From: a virus
Lineage: Duplodnaviria; Heunggongvirae; Uroviricota; Caudoviricetes
Reading direction: 5' to 3' (one strand)
DNA length: 4,037 nucleotides
Virus record (IMG/VR): IMGVR_UViG_2671180567_000004
Span: 1-4,037 of that record
Below, one piece after another: positions 1 through 4,037 of this stretch; within the stretch, counting starts at the first letter, position 1; each line of letters begins with the position of its first letter. The notes beneath the pieces were generated by a model that worked only from the letters and a program-made list of their open reading frames with translations, made no database searches and had not been told where the DNA came from. A program made the position numbers and the translations under genes.

Positions 1-511
1 GTGAGGAGAAATAGGTGTTCTGCTTACCGTTATCCGTTGTCTGTGTACGGGGAGTTCTGGCTTTCGGTGCCAGCATCTGCGCCACACCACCCAGGATCAT
101 ACTGGCCCCTGCTGCATACATACCCGATACAGCCGCGGCCCCCAGCCAGCCCACAGGGTTCCACCATGCCACCGCAATCAGCGCCGCACCCAGCACTGCC
201 TGAAACACACCACCACTTTTGGCACCCACCAGGCGCGGCACGATGTGGATCACGGCACCATTTGCCAGCGGCTCATTAAGACGGGCAGATAATTCATTTT
301 CACCTGTATCACGCCCGGCAATGCGTACCTGATACCAGCCGTCGCTCAGCTTCTGACGAAACGCCGGGATCTGCATGGCCAGCGCCCGGATGGCTTCGGC
401 CCCCGTTTTTACACGAAGGTCGATGCGGCGGCCAAATCGTTGTAAATCCCCGTAAAGGCAGATGCGTGCCATGCCCGGTGACGCCAGAGGGAGTGTGTGC
501 GTCGCTGCCAT
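1..511 (-). CDS. I: tail assembly protein I (lambda gpI homolog), N-terminal ~170 codons; gene continues beyond the 5' edge of the window
   Basis: Not in the ORF track because no stop lies in the window. Hand translation of the reverse complement from ATG at 511..509 gives MAATHTLPLASPGMARICLYGDLQRFGRRIDLRVKTGAEAIRALAMQIPAFRQKLSDGWYQVRIAGRD...VIHIVPRLVGAKSGGVFQAVLGAALIAVAWWNP...ASMILGGVAQMLAPKARTPRTQTTDNGKQNTYFSS with no stop down to position 1. This matches my memory of lambda gpI, and the position after K fits lambda order. The start overlaps the 3' end of K by about 100 nt in another frame. Confidence 0.85.
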   Translation of the reverse strand, partial: MAATHTLPLASPGMARICLYGDLQRFGRRIDLRVKTGAEAIRALAMQIPAFRQKLSDGWYQVRIAGRDTGENELSARLNEPLANGAVIHIVPRLVGAKSGGVFQAVLGAALIAVAWWNPVGWLGAAAVSGMYAAGASMILGGVAQMLAPKARTPRTQTTDNGKQNTYFSS

Positions 512-1146
512 TTGTCGGTATACCTCTCTCGTTTGCTCAGTTGTTCAGGAATATGGTGCAGCAGCTCGCCGTCACCACAGTAAATGGCGGCATGATTCGG
601 CACCGATGAACCAAAACAGCACAGCAGCACATCGCCCGGTTGTGCTGATGACAACGGCACCTGATACAGCCCTGTGGCCTCCAGATTATCCAGATAGAGA
701 TTCTGACCGTGACGCCACCAGTCATCCCCGCGATGAAAATCCGGCATCTCAATCCCCGCCAGATGATAAGCATCCCGGAACAGCGTGTAACAGTCCGTCA
801 CCCCGTGCTCAAAGCGCCGCCCGGTGAGATGCGGCACACAGCGGAACTTATGAATCGCCCCCCGGCAGACCAGCCACCACGGCAAATCACTCTGCACCTG
901 CAGCCGCCGGTCGGCCTCACTCAGCCAGGGCAGACCACCGGGGTGGCTGTGGACCAGCGCCACAATCTCACCCTGCATTTCTGCCTGCAACCAGTCTTCC
1001 GGCAACATACGGAAATACGCCTCCGGCTCACCGGAGATATTCACGCAGGGGAAATATCTTTCCCCCTCCGGCGTGCTTACCACGAAGCCGCACGACTCCG
1101 CTGGCGCACATCGCCGGGCGTGCGCCAATATATTGCTATAGAGCAT
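409..1146 (-). CDS. K: tail tip assembly protein K (lambda gpK homolog); N-terminal MPN/JAMM-type domain plus C-terminal NlpC/P60-type domain
   Basis: ORF-track entry 409..1185 (258 aa) contains HSHPGGLPWLSEAD (JAMM-like H-x-H...S-x-x-D, His codon at 949..951) with an upstream glutamate, then a C-terminal Cys/His region (GVTDCYTLF, VPNHAAIY) typical of NlpC/P60 hydrolases. The protein matches my memory of lambda K. I place the start at the second in-frame ATG (1146..1144) because it is preceded by AGGAG (complement of 1152..1156) at 5-nt spacing, while the first ATG at 1185 has no Shine-Dalgarno and would put a terminator-like hairpin inside the coding sequence. Predicted 245 aa. Confidence 0.9.
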   Translation of the reverse strand: MLYSNILAHARRCAPAESCGFVVSTPEGERYFPCVNISGEPEAYFRMLPEDWLQAEMQGEIVALVHSHPGGLPWLSEADRRLQVQSDLPWWLVCRGAIHKFRCVPHLTGRRFEHGVTDCYTLFRDAYHLAGIEMPDFHRGDDWWRHGQNLYLDNLEATGLYQVPLSSAQPGDVLLCCFGSSVPNHAAIYCGDGELLHHIPEQLSKRERYTDKWQRRTHSLWRHRAWHASAFTGIYNDLAAASTFV

Positions 1147-1159
1147 GAGAACTCCTGAT

Positions 1160-1182
1160 AAAAAACCCAGCCGAAGCTGGGT
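1160..1182 (-). terminator. candidate intrinsic terminator on the minus strand between ant stop and K ribosome-binding site
   Basis: Minus-strand RNA would read ACCCAGC-UUCG-GCUGGGU (7-bp GC-rich stem, UUCG tetraloop) followed directly by UUUUUU, then the K Shine-Dalgarno AGGAG. Plus-strand coordinates: A-tract 1160..1165, stem arms 1165..1171 and 1176..1182. Confidence 0.55.
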
Positions 1183-1200
1183 CATTTCGTTGGCAATCTG

Positions 1201-2121
1201 TTAGTAGTGATGCAGTGAAGGAGGTAATTCTTTGTTCTTAAGTCTTACCCATGCAGAAAGATTCGTTGGTCCGTCTGGCTCATTAATATCAATATCTCGC
1301 GTGTGATTGATTAAAACGTCTCTCGCCATTCCGATAACATACGAGAACTCATGGCCGTAGTCGTAGCACCTGCCAGAATAGTTTGATTGAATTTGCTTTA
1401 GCGCCAGATACAGTTCGCGGAATAATGCCTGTGAGCGGTTGGCATAATCCCATAGCCATACAAGGCTGTTTGCTTCTTTTGCGGAAAGCTCGTTGGTGCT
1501 CTTCTCTTGTTTGCCGATTAACTCTCCTTCAAGCGGAACGCGAGCAGCAAGTGACAGAGCTTCGGTAAACTGCTCCTCGCTGATTTCTTTGTATGAACAC
1601 CCAAAATGAGATTTCAGTGACGACCACATGGTGATCATCGCCTTCGCCTGTTTTTCTTTTGGCAGAGACTGACCGCGACTCATGACGAGTTGTTTAATGG
1701 CTTCCTGCTGTTCAGTGGTGATTTTCCCCAGCAATGCCTTTTTAGCTTTGCGCGGGTTAATCACATGGCCTTTAGTCCAGTACTCGTAGAGCACATCGTC
1801 ACACTCTTCCTGATACTGGATTACCTTGTCGCGAATTTCAGGGCGGACTTTGTTAGGACTGATGGTTTGGAGCCAACCATTCAGTTTACGCAAAGCAAGG
1901 CAAATCATGGTCTGCATACCGCCAACTGAAGGTATTGCGATTTCCACAATACCTTTAGCAAATCTTTGTTTTAACTTTGTAAACTGTGAAGCCCAATCCA
2001 TACCCATTCCCTCAACGATAGGTTTCATTGGGGTGTACGGTTCGCCGTTGTGATTGACGACATAAAGCTCTGCGCCGTGGAATGGCACGTTGATAGTAGA
2101 TACCGCTGTTGCTATACTCAT
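1201..2121 (-). CDS. ant: phage antirepressor (Ant-like) protein, about 306 aa
   Basis: ORF-track entry 1201..2175 (324 aa from a GTG). I prefer the in-frame ATG at 2121..2119 because it is preceded by AAGGAA (complement of 2131..2136, 8-nt spacer) and the GTG at 2175 has no Shine-Dalgarno. The N-terminus MSIATAVSTINVPFHGAELYVVNHNGEPYTPMKPIVEGMGMDWASQFTKLK resembles phage antirepressor N-terminal domains (P22 Ant / Bro-N-like) from memory. Assignment is strengthened by the adjacent upstream Arc-like and divergent Mnt-like genes. Stop TAA at 1203..1201. Confidence 0.7.
   Translation of the reverse strand: MSIATAVSTINVPFHGAELYVVNHNGEPYTPMKPIVEGMGMDWASQFTKLKQRFAKGIVEIAIPSVGGMQTMICLALRKLNGWLQTISPNKVRPEIRDKVIQYQEECDDVLYEYWTKGHVINPRKAKKALLGKITTEQQEAIKQLVMSRGQSLPKEKQAKAMITMWSSLKSHFGCSYKEISEEQFTEALSLAARVPLEGELIGKQEKSTNELSAKEANSLVWLWDYANRSQALFRELYLALKQIQSNYSGRCYDYGHEFSYVIGMARDVLINHTRDIDINEPDGPTNLSAWVRLKNKELPPSLHHY
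2090..2118 (+). promoter_or_regulatory. candidate sigma70 promoter for an antisense (sar-like) RNA, inside the 5' end of ant
   Basis: Plus strand: -35 TTGATA (2090..2095), 17-bp spacer, extended -10 TGc TATACT (TG at 2110..2111, hexamer 2113..2118). Predicted start near 2125, reading antisense across the ant Shine-Dalgarno. Confidence 0.4.
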
Positions 2122-2124
2122 TTC

Positions 2125-2195
2125 GTTAGTTCCTTGGAAGTTACTGACATAGAAGCCCGATTTGTGTTCGCGCACTGTCGGGCTTCGCTATTTTT
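2125..2195 (+). ncRNA. candidate cis-antisense small RNA (sar-like, about 70 nt) complementary to the ant ribosome-binding site and arc-ant spacer
   Basis: Bounded by the candidate promoter at 2090..2118 and the plus-strand hairpin plus U-tract at 2152..2195. The transcript would contain UCCUUG, the complement of the ant Shine-Dalgarno. P22 immI is known to encode a short antisense RNA (sar) in the arc-ant spacer; this is an analogy, not a sequence match. Confidence 0.35.
2152..2195 (+). terminator. candidate unidirectional intrinsic terminator (plus strand) in the arc-ant spacer
   Basis: Inverted repeat GAAGCCCGA (2152..2160) / TCGGGCTTC (2178..2186) gives a 9-bp stem with a 17-nt loop that has an inner GTG/CAC pairing. 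On the plus strand it is followed by GCTATTTTTAT (T-run 2191..2195). On the minus strand no U-tract follows, so arc-to-ant read-through should not be stopped. Confidence 0.4.
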
Positions 2196-2361
2196 ATGTC
2201 CTAGCATTCTTCTCTCCAATCAGTCCGTACACTTTTCTCAATTGATAAATAAGTTCCGTGTTGAACTGTCGACACTCTTTTTCTCCATTTCTTTCAATCG
2301 CCTTCCTTACATCCTCTGGGAAACGAACCTTGCGTTGATACATGTCTTTTGCTTTTTCCAT
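2194..2361 (-). CDS. arc: Arc-like ribbon-helix-helix repressor, 55 aa (not in the ORF track)
   Basis: Hand translation of the minus strand from ATG 2361..2359 gives MEKAKDMYQRKVRFPEDVRKAIERNGEKECRQFNTELIYQLRKVYGLIGEKNART, stop TAA at 2196..2194. Strong Shine-Dalgarno AAGGAG with 5-nt spacer (complement of 2367..2372). The strand (KVRFPEDV), helix and N-cap (NTELIYQL) pattern closely resembles P22 Arc as I remember it (...NLRWPREV...NSEIYQRV...). It sits immediately upstream of ant on the same strand. Confidence 0.8.
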   Translation of the reverse strand: MEKAKDMYQRKVRFPEDVRKAIERNGEKECRQFNTELIYQLRKVYGLIGEKNART

Positions 2362-2399
2362 CTCCACTCCTTAAATAGCCTCACTATGGGGCAACCAAA

Positions 2400-2428
2400 A
2401 TTGTCACACCGTGCGTCATTGAAGTCAA
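2400..2428 (-). promoter_or_regulatory. candidate Pant-like sigma70 promoter driving arc-ant (minus strand)
   Basis: Minus strand reads TTGACT (complement of 2423..2428), 17-bp spacer, TGtGACAAT (extended -10; hexamer is complement of 2400..2405). Predicted start about 30 nt upstream of the arc ATG. The spacer contains CACCGTG (2407..2413). Confidence 0.45.
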
Positions 2429-2447
2429 CCCCACCGTGGGGCATAAT
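2419..2447 (+). promoter_or_regulatory. candidate Pmnt-like sigma70 promoter driving the Mnt-like gene (plus strand)
   Basis: Plus strand: -35 TTGAAG (2419..2424), 17-bp spacer, -10 CATAAT (2442..2447), about 37 bp before the ATG at 2485. Its -35 overlaps the -35 of the divergent minus-strand promoter back-to-back. The spacer contains the palindrome CCCCAC-C-GTGGGG (2429..2441). Confidence 0.5.
2429..2441. promoter_or_regulatory. candidate operator: 13-bp palindrome CCCCAC-C-GTGGGG
   Basis: Dyad symmetry (6-bp arms around a central C) between the two -35 elements and abutting the plus-strand -10. Its core CACCGTG recurs as a direct repeat at 2407..2413 inside the opposite promoter spacer. 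The size and symmetry suit a ribbon-helix-helix dimer or tetramer site. Confidence 0.45.
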
Positions 2448-2484
2448 TTACTTATTGTGAATTTTTCCTGTTTGGACTAATGGT

Positions 2485-2859
2485 ATGAGTAGAGAAGACC
2501 CTCAACTTCGGATTAGGCTTCCTGTTGAATTAAAAAAAATAATTGAAGCGTCATCAAAACAAAATAATCGTTCTATGAATGCTGAGATTGTCACTCTGCT
2601 TGAGTTGGCGATTCGTGTTTGTCGTGATTTTGGGCCGGAGGATGGTCCTATCGTTCAGCAGTTTAAAGAACAACTAGATGCGATAAACAGAAAATATGAT
2701 AAAAGCGAGCATGAAAAACTTATACCTCAACTTTTAGAAATCATAGAAAAACAGAAAAAACAAGTAGATAAACTTATTAGCATGGTTGAAAGATCAATTC
2801 CTCTTTCAGAGGAATATAAGCAGAAATATCTTGGTGATGACAACAAAAAACCCACCTGA
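2485..2859 (+). CDS. mnt: Mnt-like ribbon-helix-helix repressor with extended C-terminal helical region, 124 aa
   Basis: ORF-track entry 2485..2859. N-terminus MSREDPQLRIRLPVELKKIIEASSKQNNRSMNAEIVTLLELAI has the Arc/MetJ-type strand-helix-helix signature and resembles the P22 Mnt N-terminus as I remember it (RDDPHFNFRMP...NGRSMNSEL...). The C-terminal part (LIPQLLEIIEKQKKQVDKLISMVERS) is heptad-like and K/E-rich, consistent with an oligomerisation helix. It is divergent from arc-ant and convergent with L. Confidence 0.8.
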   Translation: MSREDPQLRIRLPVELKKIIEASSKQNNRSMNAEIVTLLELAIRVCRDFGPEDGPIVQQFKEQLDAINRKYDKSEHEKLIPQLLEIIEKQKKQVDKLISMVERSIPLSEEYKQKYLGDDNKKPT

Positions 2860-2866
2860 TGGTGGG
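2845..2866 (-). terminator. candidate intrinsic terminator on the minus strand just after the L stop codon
   Basis: Minus-strand RNA after the L stop (TAA, complement of 2876..2878) reads CCCACC-AUCA-GGUGGG followed directly by UUUUUU. Plus-strand coordinates: A-tract 2845..2850, stem arms 2851..2856 and 2861..2866. The hairpin overlaps the Mnt-like stop codon (TGA 2857..2859, in the loop). Confidence 0.5.
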
Positions 2867-2875
2867 CATAATCCA

Positions 2876-3574
2876 TTACTGCGAAAGTTTGTTAATGGAA
2901 AGGAAGCCGCCAAAGTTGCCGACGTTATTGCGAAACTTACAGCCACTCAGGCATTTGCTGCATTTATCCTTCGTGATATCGGACGTCGGCTGATCATATT
3001 CATCCGCGACTGCCGGACCGTGATAACCGCACTCATCACCGCGATAGGTCCAGGTGCAGGTGTTGGCCAGCATGATACGTCCCGGAAAAACAGCGCCGTC
3101 CGTTTCCGTCGGCGTGGACAGTACAAAAGAGGCACTCACCGCGCTCAGTTCGCTGCACTGCTCAATGCGCCAGCGGCTGATCACCTCCTGCTCCGGATCG
3201 GCGTCACTGTTTCCGTTGACGAAGTTCACCGCATCCAGAAAACGGGCGTAAACCTTACGCCGGACCACCGTTCCGCCGACCAGACTCTGCAGATCTTCCG
3301 CCATCCCGGTGACCATACCGTACAGGTTAGAAACCGTCAGCGTGGGGCGCGTACTGGTGCCTTTGCCATTCAGTTCAAAACCACTCCCCTGAATGGGATA
3401 CGGCTGATACTGTCGCCCCTGCCAGGTGACCGGCTCACCTTTTTCGTTCTGCTCATTACAGAAAAAATAACGTTCTCCACCGACCTCTGTCAGGTCGATT
3501 TCCCAGAGCACCACGCTGGCCGACTGCTCCGCACGGGTGCATTCATTCAGTGTTTCCTGCCGGATATCCTGCAT
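2876..3574 (-). CDS. L: minor tail protein L (lambda gpL homolog), 232 aa
   Basis: ORF-track protein MQDIRQETLNECTRAEQSASVVLWEIDLTEVGGERYFFCNEQNEKGEPVTWQGRQYQPYPIQ...CSKCLSGCKFRNNVGNFGGFLSINKLSQ matches lambda gpL almost along its whole length from memory. The start ATG overlaps the M stop (TGATG, 3576..3572). Four C-terminal cysteines are present. Confidence 0.95.
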   Translation of the reverse strand: MQDIRQETLNECTRAEQSASVVLWEIDLTEVGGERYFFCNEQNEKGEPVTWQGRQYQPYPIQGSGFELNGKGTSTRPTLTVSNLYGMVTGMAEDLQSLVGGTVVRRKVYARFLDAVNFVNGNSDADPEQEVISRWRIEQCSELSAVSASFVLSTPTETDGAVFPGRIMLANTCTWTYRGDECGYHGPAVADEYDQPTSDITKDKCSKCLSGCKFRNNVGNFGGFLSINKLSQ

Positions 3575-3903
3575 CAGTTCACCACCTGTTCAAACTCTGC
3601 GCTGAACTCAACACGCAGCATACTGACCCGCGACGACCATTTTGCGCAGGTCACCTTTATCTGCCGCCACTCATAAGGCGGCGTCCACAGAAAGGCTTTC
3701 CAGCCCCCGTGCTCTTCCAGAAACGACTCCAGTACCGTGGCCTCCTCACGGGGGACAGAAAGCGTCACGCTGTACGTTTTCAGGTTGGCATTCAGCCCGG
3801 CAGGCGCTCGCTGGGAATAGCCATCACCAAAGCGCACCTTTCTTACAGAAGGGGCCGAAGCCACATCCATACCGGGTTTCACTTTCCAGCGGAAGGTTTT
3901 CAT
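3574..3903 (-). CDS. M: minor tail protein M (lambda gpM homolog), 109 aa
   Basis: ORF-track protein MKTFRWKVKPGMDVASAPSVRKVRFGDGYSQRAPAGLNANLKTYSVTLSVPREEATVLESFLEEHGGWKAFLWTPPYEWRQIKVTCAKWSSRVSMLRVEFSAEFEQVVN is near-identical to lambda gpM from memory. The start overlaps the H stop (ATGA). Confidence 0.95.
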   Translation of the reverse strand: MKTFRWKVKPGMDVASAPSVRKVRFGDGYSQRAPAGLNANLKTYSVTLSVPREEATVLESFLEEHGGWKAFLWTPPYEWRQIKVTCAKWSSRVSMLRVEFSAEFEQVVN

Positions 3904-4037
3904 CGTCCACCTCCGGAGAACAGGCCACCATCACGCATCTGTGCCTGAATCTCATCCTGCGCCCCCTTGCGGGCCATGTCATACACCGCCTTCATCAGCT
4001 GCGGCCCCGCCTGTCCGTTGGTGCCGTCGTTCTGAAT
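3900..4037 (-). CDS. H: tail tape-measure protein H (lambda gpH homolog), C-terminal 45 codons; gene continues beyond the 3' edge of the window
   Basis: Hand translation of the reverse complement of 3903..4037 gives IQNDGTNGQAGPQLMKAVYDMARKGAQDEIQAQMRDGGLFSGGGR, stop TGA at 3902..3900 overlapping the M start. Assigned as H from its position immediately upstream of M and its resemblance to the lambda gpH C-terminus as I remember it. Confidence 0.8.
   Translation of the reverse strand: MQNDGTNGQAGPQLMKAVYDMARKGAQDEIQAQMRDGGLFSGGGR

Follow-up and report, generated by a model that had tools for sequence, protein, structure and literature searches.

A P22-type ant terminator hairpin ahead of tail gene K in a lambda-type prophage

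The DNA considered here is the stretch of 4,037 nucleotides (nt) at positions 1 to 4,037 of the viral record IMGVR_UViG_2671180567_000004 in IMG/VR, referred to at its full length as the window. Along its minus strand run the lambda-type tail genes H' (3' end), M and L, then an insert, then K and I'. The last gene of the insert is ant, which encodes a P22-type antirepressor, and between the ant stop codon and K lies a stem-loop followed by a run of U residues (1160..1183, minus strand), called the ant hairpin below. By its anatomy, that is, a stable G+C-rich stem-loop, a U run and a site downstream of a stop codon, it is a Rho-independent terminator. As judged from the homology of the region, it corresponds to the ant terminator (t_ant) of the immI region of phage P22, and the insert is an ant moron made up of a mnt-like gene, an arc-like gene, a sar-like RNA and ant. 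The element is thus of a known kind, found in a less-described location. The account as a whole, in which a P22-type ant terminator closes the ant moron, insulates it from the tail genes and is crossed by Q-modified polymerase, is considered probable.

The hairpin after ant and its P22 counterpart

Read along the minus strand from 1203 to 1144, the region consists of UAA (ant stop, 1203..1201)-CAGAUUGCCAACGAAAU-GACCCAGC-UUCG-GCUGGGUU-UUUUAUC-AGGAG-UUCUC-AUG (K). The core stem CCCAGC/GCUGGG is formed by 1181..1176 and 1171..1166 around the loop UUCG (1175..1172), and it can be extended to 8 base pairs (bp) via one A-U and one G.U pair. Six U residues (1165..1160) follow, and then AUC. The ant stop codon and the spacer together occupy 1184..1203 of the minus strand (stop at 1201..1203), which leaves 17 nt of non-coding sequence up to the hairpin. 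On the other side, the U run is 3 nt from the Shine-Dalgarno sequence of K and 13 nt from its AUG. The initial annotation of this DNA had placed a hairpin and a U tract between the ant stop codon and the K Shine-Dalgarno sequence, and the sequence, the predicted fold and the shuffle odds all confirm it. Its count of a 7-bp stem together with six U used U1165 twice; with A1182:U1165 paired, five unpaired U remain, a difference that is immaterial.

The possibility, raised at the same time, that the structure might not fold stably is not borne out. The predicted fold reaches -14.1 kcal/mol over 31 nt (z = -4.06), and one of 200 shuffled sequences was equally stable. Under a strict definition of a terminator (a perfect 6-bp stem with at least four G/C, a 4-nt loop and at least five T in the next six positions), the window contains exactly two sites, the ant hairpin and a second hairpin just after L, referred to as the L-side hairpin, both on the minus strand. 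Dinucleotide shuffles gave a mean of 0.005 strict sites per window, with one site in 10 and two sites in none of 2000 shuffles. A scan of the whole window against Rfam, with E up to 1, returned no match, so that neither hairpin nor the sar-like RNA falls in a curated family. A reading of the ant hairpin as a terminator for the plus strand was rejected, as no plus-strand gene converges on it.

The comparison with P22 gives the hairpin its identity. The ant gene (1201..2121, minus strand) matches P22_AR_N (5.4e-45), P22_AR_C (4.6e-28) and the PHROG anti-repressor Ant. In the P22 record NC_002371, a regulatory feature of the type 'terminator' is annotated for ant at 16012..16035, and it has the same 8-bp stem and the same UUCG loop as the window hairpin; the P22 region reads CTACTGACAGATAACCAACGCAACGACCCAGCTTCGGCTGGGTTTTTTT and the window reads CTACTAACAGATTGCCAACGAAATGACCCAGCTTCGGCTGGGTTTTTT. 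The ant 3' end and the spacer are homologous between the two, the spacer having diverged while the hairpin is unchanged. The P22 reference record is laid out as mnt, Pmnt/Pant, arc, sar, ant, terminator and gene 9, and the insert follows the same order, its hairpin having, like that of P22, partners of the mnt, arc and sar kind (arc-like and sar-like being putative here) and overlapping divergent promoter-like sites. In both phages the hairpin stands on the late strand between ant and an essential late structural gene. The differences lie in the U run (U7 in P22, U6 in the window), in the next gene (the tailspike gene 168 nt downstream in P22, in contrast to a lambda-type K whose Shine-Dalgarno sequence comes 3 nt after the U run) and in the genome itself, which is that of a P22-like podovirus in one case and a lambda-type siphovirus prophage in the other. 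The earlier proposal of a terminator after ant is supported by the label that the P22 record gives to the homologous site; the presumed release of the transcript at the hairpin is backed by the same label and by a statement in the literature on P22.

Conservation was counted from two anchors that do not contain the hairpin, namely the coding end of ant and the K leader CAGGAGTTCTCATGCTCTATAGC, in IMG/VR contigs and fetched loci. A profile anchored on the hairpin was dropped as circular, since those loci had been fetched by exact hairpin match. Counted from the first anchor, the hairpin follows 131 of 132 ant 3' ends. The variants within it are one loop base and one C-to-U change in the stem that keeps a G.U pair, and the U run ranges from 5 to 8; the spacer beside it is more variable, and the three bases 5' of the stem show several variants. 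Counted from the second anchor, every K leader copy (54 of 54) is preceded by the hairpin, with a CUCG loop in seven copies and U5 in 13.

The same data bear on whether the stem-loop serves chiefly the fate of RNA, as a stabiliser of the 3' end of ant mRNA or as a 5' element that tunes the translation or processing of K. Terminator hairpins generally protect 3' ends, and in the window the hairpin directly precedes the ribosome site of K. This proximity is not conserved, however: the hairpin is kept where the next gene, the P22 tailspike gene, starts 58-168 nt away. The U run, moreover, is present in every copy of the ant hairpin. A role chiefly in RNA fate is accordingly regarded as very unlikely.

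The insert between L and K and the proposed passage of late transcription

In relatives without the cassette (HK630, mEp332 and 112 IMG/VR contigs), L and K are separated by 4-11 nt, with no obvious Shine-Dalgarno sequence. The uninterrupted junction reads TAA-ATCCC-ATG, and K starts MTQTESAILAHARRC. In the window, the gene for minor tail protein L (2876..3574, minus strand) ends with the stop codon TAA at 2876..2878, 8 nt before the L-side hairpin, and 1729 nt separate this stop from the start of the tail tip assembly gene K (409..1146, minus strand; JAB and NlpC/P60 domains). Because L and K are 4-11 nt apart elsewhere, the insert is a moron between genes that are adjacent in relatives. Its limits lie just after the L stop codon on one side and within the first K codons on the other. 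The window K starts MLYSNILAHARRC, and its first six codons encode MLYSNI in place of the lambda MTQTESAI (1128..1159 region, minus strand). The translation initiation region of K (1144..1159, minus strand), with the Shine-Dalgarno sequence AGGAG at 1152..1156, a 5-nt spacer and the AUG at 1144..1146, is supplied by the cassette. It is plausible that this new, strong ribosome site offsets the close coupling of L and K lost on insertion.

An in-frame ATG at 1185..1183 was also considered as the start of K, which would give an open reading frame (ORF) of 258 amino acids (aa) running through the hairpin (MTQLRLGFLSGVL...). It was rejected: it has no Shine-Dalgarno sequence, it does not occur in PhiR12-type or P22 flanks, and the Prokaryotic Genome Annotation Pipeline (PGAP) puts the K start at 1146. 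The K frame extended to 1185 resembles the lambda K start MTQ by chance.

The proposed working of the locus involves two sources of transcription. Transcripts from the Pant-like promoter of the cassette would span arc and ant, with their 3' ends at the ant hairpin, which would keep this transcription out of K, I and J. At the other end, the L-side hairpin would bar unmodified late-strand polymerase from the cassette, where it would run antisense to mnt and then into arc and ant. During lytic growth, polymerase that starts at the late promoter and is modified by the prophage Q would ignore both terminators, and K, I, J and the fibre genes would be transcribed. The L-K junction being broken, the cassette would carry a strong Shine-Dalgarno sequence and a new K start straight after the U run. 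The efficiency of termination, the Q-dependent read-through and the insulating role of the hairpins are proposed on the basis of the computational analysis.

Because there is no room for a promoter before K, polymerase would reach K, I and J only through the ant hairpin. A promoter scan of the interval between the ant hairpin and K found no promoter-like site. It could be argued that K, I and J are independent of read-through, either because K has a promoter of its own or because the terminator is too weak. In 13 of the 54 copies in the K context the U run has just five residues, and weak matches to promoters abound in all kinds of sequence. Against this, the distances of 3 nt and 13 nt from the U run to the Shine-Dalgarno sequence and the AUG exclude a promoter, promoters inside ant would still face the hairpin, and the anatomy of the hairpin (-14 kcal/mol, UUCG loop, U6) is that of a strong terminator. 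Independence from read-through is thus given very little credence.

Lambdoid phages transcribe all their structural genes from a single late promoter, with a terminator-resistant, Q-modified polymerase that ignores downstream intrinsic terminators. The window matches, with 99.9% identity, a prophage beside dusA in E. coli CFSAN018748 (NZ_CP028192.1). This prophage has a Q gene of the lambda type (PF03589, 1.3e-57), which shares its strand with the tail genes and has the usual lambda position, upstream of the lysis and structural genes. The likeness to late antitermination by Q of lambda and gp23 of P22 is in the gene and its position, and action on the two cassette terminators would follow the same model.

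Of 5426 complete E. coli genomes, 463 (about 8.5%) carry the junction of ant, hairpin and K, at up to five places per genome. It also occurs in 22 phage records; among them are the Shiga-toxin (Stx) phages 2851, 1717 and YYZ-2008 as well as the PhiR12 phages, with K-12 or E. coli C entered as their host. The arrangement is compatible with working tails, because it is found in deposited viable Stx and PhiR12 phages. Taken on the grounds of the missing promoter room, the lambda-type Q, the viable Stx and PhiR12 carriers and the P22 precedent, read-through by Q-modified polymerase best explains how K, I and J would be expressed. The initial annotation had held that the cassette has terminators on both sides on the late strand and that K, I and J would depend on read-through, for example of the Q type. 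The first statement is supported by the anatomy, the folds and the strict-site count, and the second is favoured by the context, namely the lack of promoter room and the Q gene of the prophage.

Several observations weigh against this account. The matching prophage (NZ_CP028192.1) contains an IS66-family element within its small terminase gene and frameshifts in the portal-protease, decoration, capsid and FI genes. These lesions may mean a defective prophage or, alternatively, indel errors of the assembly; because the prophage looks defective, its late expression is possibly moot. Compensatory double changes in the stem of the ant hairpin were absent from both anchored sets, and for this reason invariance and one G.U change, in place of covariation, back its structure. 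In addition, the same 21-mer CCCAGCTTCGGCTGGGTTTTT occurs in Chryseobacterium, Vibrio, Pseudoalteromonas, Idiomarina, Haemophilus and others (loci L436-L515), and it looks like a convergent, generic near-optimal terminator. Identity of the hairpin alone was rejected as proof of homology, since the 21-mer recurs in unrelated bacteria; the P22 homology of the ant hairpin is accepted because the flanks are homologous. Finally, the paper on phage L calls the roles of terminators inside late operons unknown (PMC8022706). For the predicted intrinsic terminators inside the single-promoter late operon of that phage, partial attenuation or the stopping of spurious unmodified transcription has been proposed (PMC8022706). 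The phage L terminators are unassigned and lie between structural modules, whereas the window hairpin has a unit of its own, Pant-arc-ant, to end.

The paired hairpins as cassette ends

The L-side hairpin (2845..2867, minus strand) is the late-strand terminator just after L and the left end of the cassette. It reads (G)CCCACC-AUCA-GGUGGG(U), followed by U6 at 2845..2850, and its predicted fold reaches -12.6 kcal/mol (z = -3.88). The U run is present on the late strand only; on the side of the mnt strand the sequence continues with CAUAAUCC. The P22 counterpart, CCCGCC-GTCA-GGTGG-T7, is located at the P22 mnt stop codon. In the window, the mnt-like gene of the Arc family of repressors (2485..2859, plus strand; Pfam Arc 3e-07; 124 aa) has its TGA stop codon within the loop of the hairpin, and on the mnt strand the A run, the 5' arm and the loop read AAA AAA CCC ACC TGA. 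More than 40 different ORF tails in loci L001-L222 end in KKPT or KKTT followed by a stop codon, all encoded by the L-side hairpin. These ORFs are mostly genes of the Mnt/Arc family, with C-terminal parts that are otherwise unrelated.

The initial annotation had remarked on the matched layout of the two hairpins and suggested that it could reflect how the cassette was built or mobilised. The layout is literally there: on the plus strand, both sites in the window read A6-CCCA.C-4 nt-G.TGGG-(T)CAT. An ungapped comparison of the two hairpins, which have the same orientation, gives 18 identical positions out of 22, including one exchange of a C-G for a G-C pair in the stem. The resemblance is largely that of the generic terminator form, however. 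Six of the 18 matching positions belong to the obligatory U run, and 13 of 171 pairs of distinct perfect terminator stems of 6 bp with 4-nt loops share at least five of six positions, in a crude test on 2.3 Mb of fetched phage DNA, a small sample enriched for these loci. On this count the two were not accepted as a significant pair of repeats. The CAT was likewise rejected as part of a shared layout, as P22 has CGT and PhiR12_1 has TTG beside t_ant; the bases beside the L-side hairpin differ outside the L context. What stands of the suggestion about building or mobilising is that the ends of the moron are conserved at mosaic boundaries, the resemblance itself being generic.

The identity of 18 in 22 positions and the common orientation are what could favour a view of the two hairpins as diverged direct repeats left by insertion, like a duplicated target or attachment site. 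With six of the matches in the U run and stems of unrelated origin agreeing at five of six positions in 13 of 171 pairs, this identity carries little weight. Each hairpin has, furthermore, its own P22 homologue, one at the mnt stop codon and the other after ant, and between these two lies the mnt-arc-ant core of a moron with further genes. The cassette has no recombinase gene according to Pfam and PHROG searches of the window proteins, and no empty site with a single hairpin was found among the 112 uninterrupted L-K junctions. An origin by insertional duplication is highly improbable, and the idea of a duplicated insertion site is not supported.

A different possibility is that the hairpins are mainly recombination joints, linkers at the module ends used in swapping immI cassettes, with termination as a secondary property. 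Both hairpins were found on one strand of one fetched locus in 81 cases, nearly all 1.5-3.6 kb apart; the exceptions are three pairs 73-74 nt apart and one pair 1.06 kb apart. Such pairs are seen both ahead of the P22 tailspike leader and in the L-K interval, and they flank ant morons in P22-like and lambda-like contigs alike. At the L-K site, 31 distinct cassettes (1664-2350 nt) were collected, which fall into at least five content types, and the L-side hairpin is conserved in all 31. Their similarity to the window stops exactly at the L-side T run and resumes only inside ant, so that the alignment of cassette boundaries proposed with the initial annotation gives a sharp left joint. The L-side hairpin joins at least eight recurrent upstream contexts to at least six recurrent downstream contexts in many combinations. 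Downstream of t_ant, the contexts diverge right after TTTTTTAT, where the P22 tailspike leader, the K leader or others follow. The hairpin-encoded KKPT or KKTT tails of more than 40 ORFs point in the same direction.

Other results do not fit a role mainly in recombination. The loci were fetched by exact hairpin match, and the combinatorial picture is thus conditioned on the presence of the hairpin. The right-hand breakpoints lie inside ant, not at t_ant. Deleted morons keep both hairpins, with the 3' ends of mnt and ant fused, which is not the product of recombination between hairpins, and the 112 uninterrupted junctions include no empty site with one hairpin. Both elements, besides, show complete terminator anatomy, their U runs being on the late strand. 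The notion that the immI/ant cassette has in the hairpins its portable ends, which serve as preferred joints for the exchange of whole cassettes and of their internal modules between P22-like podoviruses and lambda-like siphoviruses, is accordingly tentative and held to be less probable than not by a clear distance, and as an explanation centred on recombination it can coexist with termination and Q-dependent read-through. If it were true, the left hairpin would give any Mnt-like gene joined to it a ready-made 3' end with KKPT, stop codon and terminator, and the right hairpin would come coupled to a ready-made ribosome site for the next late gene.

Nearly empty ant morons were observed in three P22-like IMG/VR contigs (L071 6164..6260, L097 and L200), with the hairpins 73-74 nt apart. 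In these, the last mnt codons are fused to the last ant codons, and two tandem terminators stand before the tailspike gene.

Other morons, significance and remaining features

Villafane et al. 2008 (PMC2629481) describe the ant moron of P22-like phages solely between genes 16 and 9, and they remark that the morphogenetic clusters of these phages have no morons at other places. The window cassette resembles this moron as a variable set of genes, probably expressed independently, in a late operon just before a tail gene, with high flux of content (five or more content types between L and K) and with late transcription having to cross it. It differs in lying between lambda-type L and K and in rewriting the start of K.

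Morons are also known from lambda and HK97-type phages, for example lom, bor and the HK97 morons, under the concept associated with Juhala and Hendrix. The window cassette shares with them the nature of an extra unit between genes adjacent in relatives, with promoter-like sites and a downstream terminator. In contrast to a single lysogenic-conversion gene, it contains two predicted repressors, a putative antisense RNA and an antirepressor, and it has late-strand terminators on both sides. The presence of ant and Arc between L and K is already annotated in GenBank records of Stx phages. No discussion of the L-K ant cassette or of its terminators came up in literature searches, which turned up database annotations alone.

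The analysis offers a correct reading of a locus present in about 8.5% of complete E. coli genomes, often in multiple copies, and in many Shiga-toxin phages. At this locus, a P22-type antirepressor circuit fenced by terminators sits inside a tail operon. With the tail tip genes K, I and J behind two intrinsic terminators, their expression would be tied to Q antitermination. Keeping the transcription of the antirepressor apart from that of the tail genes would be relevant to models of prophage cross-induction in strains with multiple lambdoid prophages, and the cassette ends can serve as markers for tracing module exchange between phage types. The current understanding of terminators and antitermination is unchanged. 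A terminator-bounded moron read through by Q is no surprise to the specialist, and the KKPT-encoding joint and the spread of the cassette across morphotypes are tidy, incremental additions.

The remaining features of the insert add to its likeness to immI. The arc-like gene (2194..2367, minus strand; 57 aa) occupies the position of P22 arc and probably encodes a small ribbon-helix-helix protein. Its Pfam Arc score of 19.1 bits falls short of the cut-off of 20.4 (E = 0.0012), and it matches the PHROG Arc-like repressor at 5.5e-06. Between the arc-like and mnt-like genes, divergent overlapping promoter-like sites were recognised by consensus matches at 2400..2447, with the Pant equivalent on the minus strand (2428..2400) and the Pmnt equivalent on the plus strand (2419..2447). 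The palindrome CCCCAC-C-GTGGGG (2429..2441) abuts the -35 element of the Pant-like promoter and has the CCACGGTGG core in common with the annotated mnt operator of P22; it probably serves the mnt-like repressor as operator.

A putative antisense RNA unit resembling sar (2090..2195, plus strand) lies between arc and ant, and its predicted transcript spans the ribosome site of ant. Its strong promoter-like site, TTGATA-17-TGcTATACT with an extended -10 element (2090..2118), lies about 35 nt ahead of a terminator hairpin (2152..2186; -28.1 kcal/mol, z = -4.5), and T5 comes at 2191..2195. The extended -10 sequence TGcTATACT is kept in all four aligned cassettes. In the hairpin, the ends GAAGCC/GGCTTC are conserved among the window, P22, phage 2851 and PhiR12_1, and the inner sequence varies. 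Upstream of L on the late strand, the window contains tail gene M (3574..3903, minus strand).

Within 20 kb of late genes of the matching prophage, the clearly canonical late-strand terminators are the two cassette hairpins and one after J. This third terminator, which is outside the window, reads GGGCGCCA-GAAA-UGGCGCC with U6 and stands between J and the tail fibre genes (L004 7244..7263, minus strand). The nin region of the same prophage contains two more genes of the antirepressor type, with KilAC and P22AR C-terminal domains.

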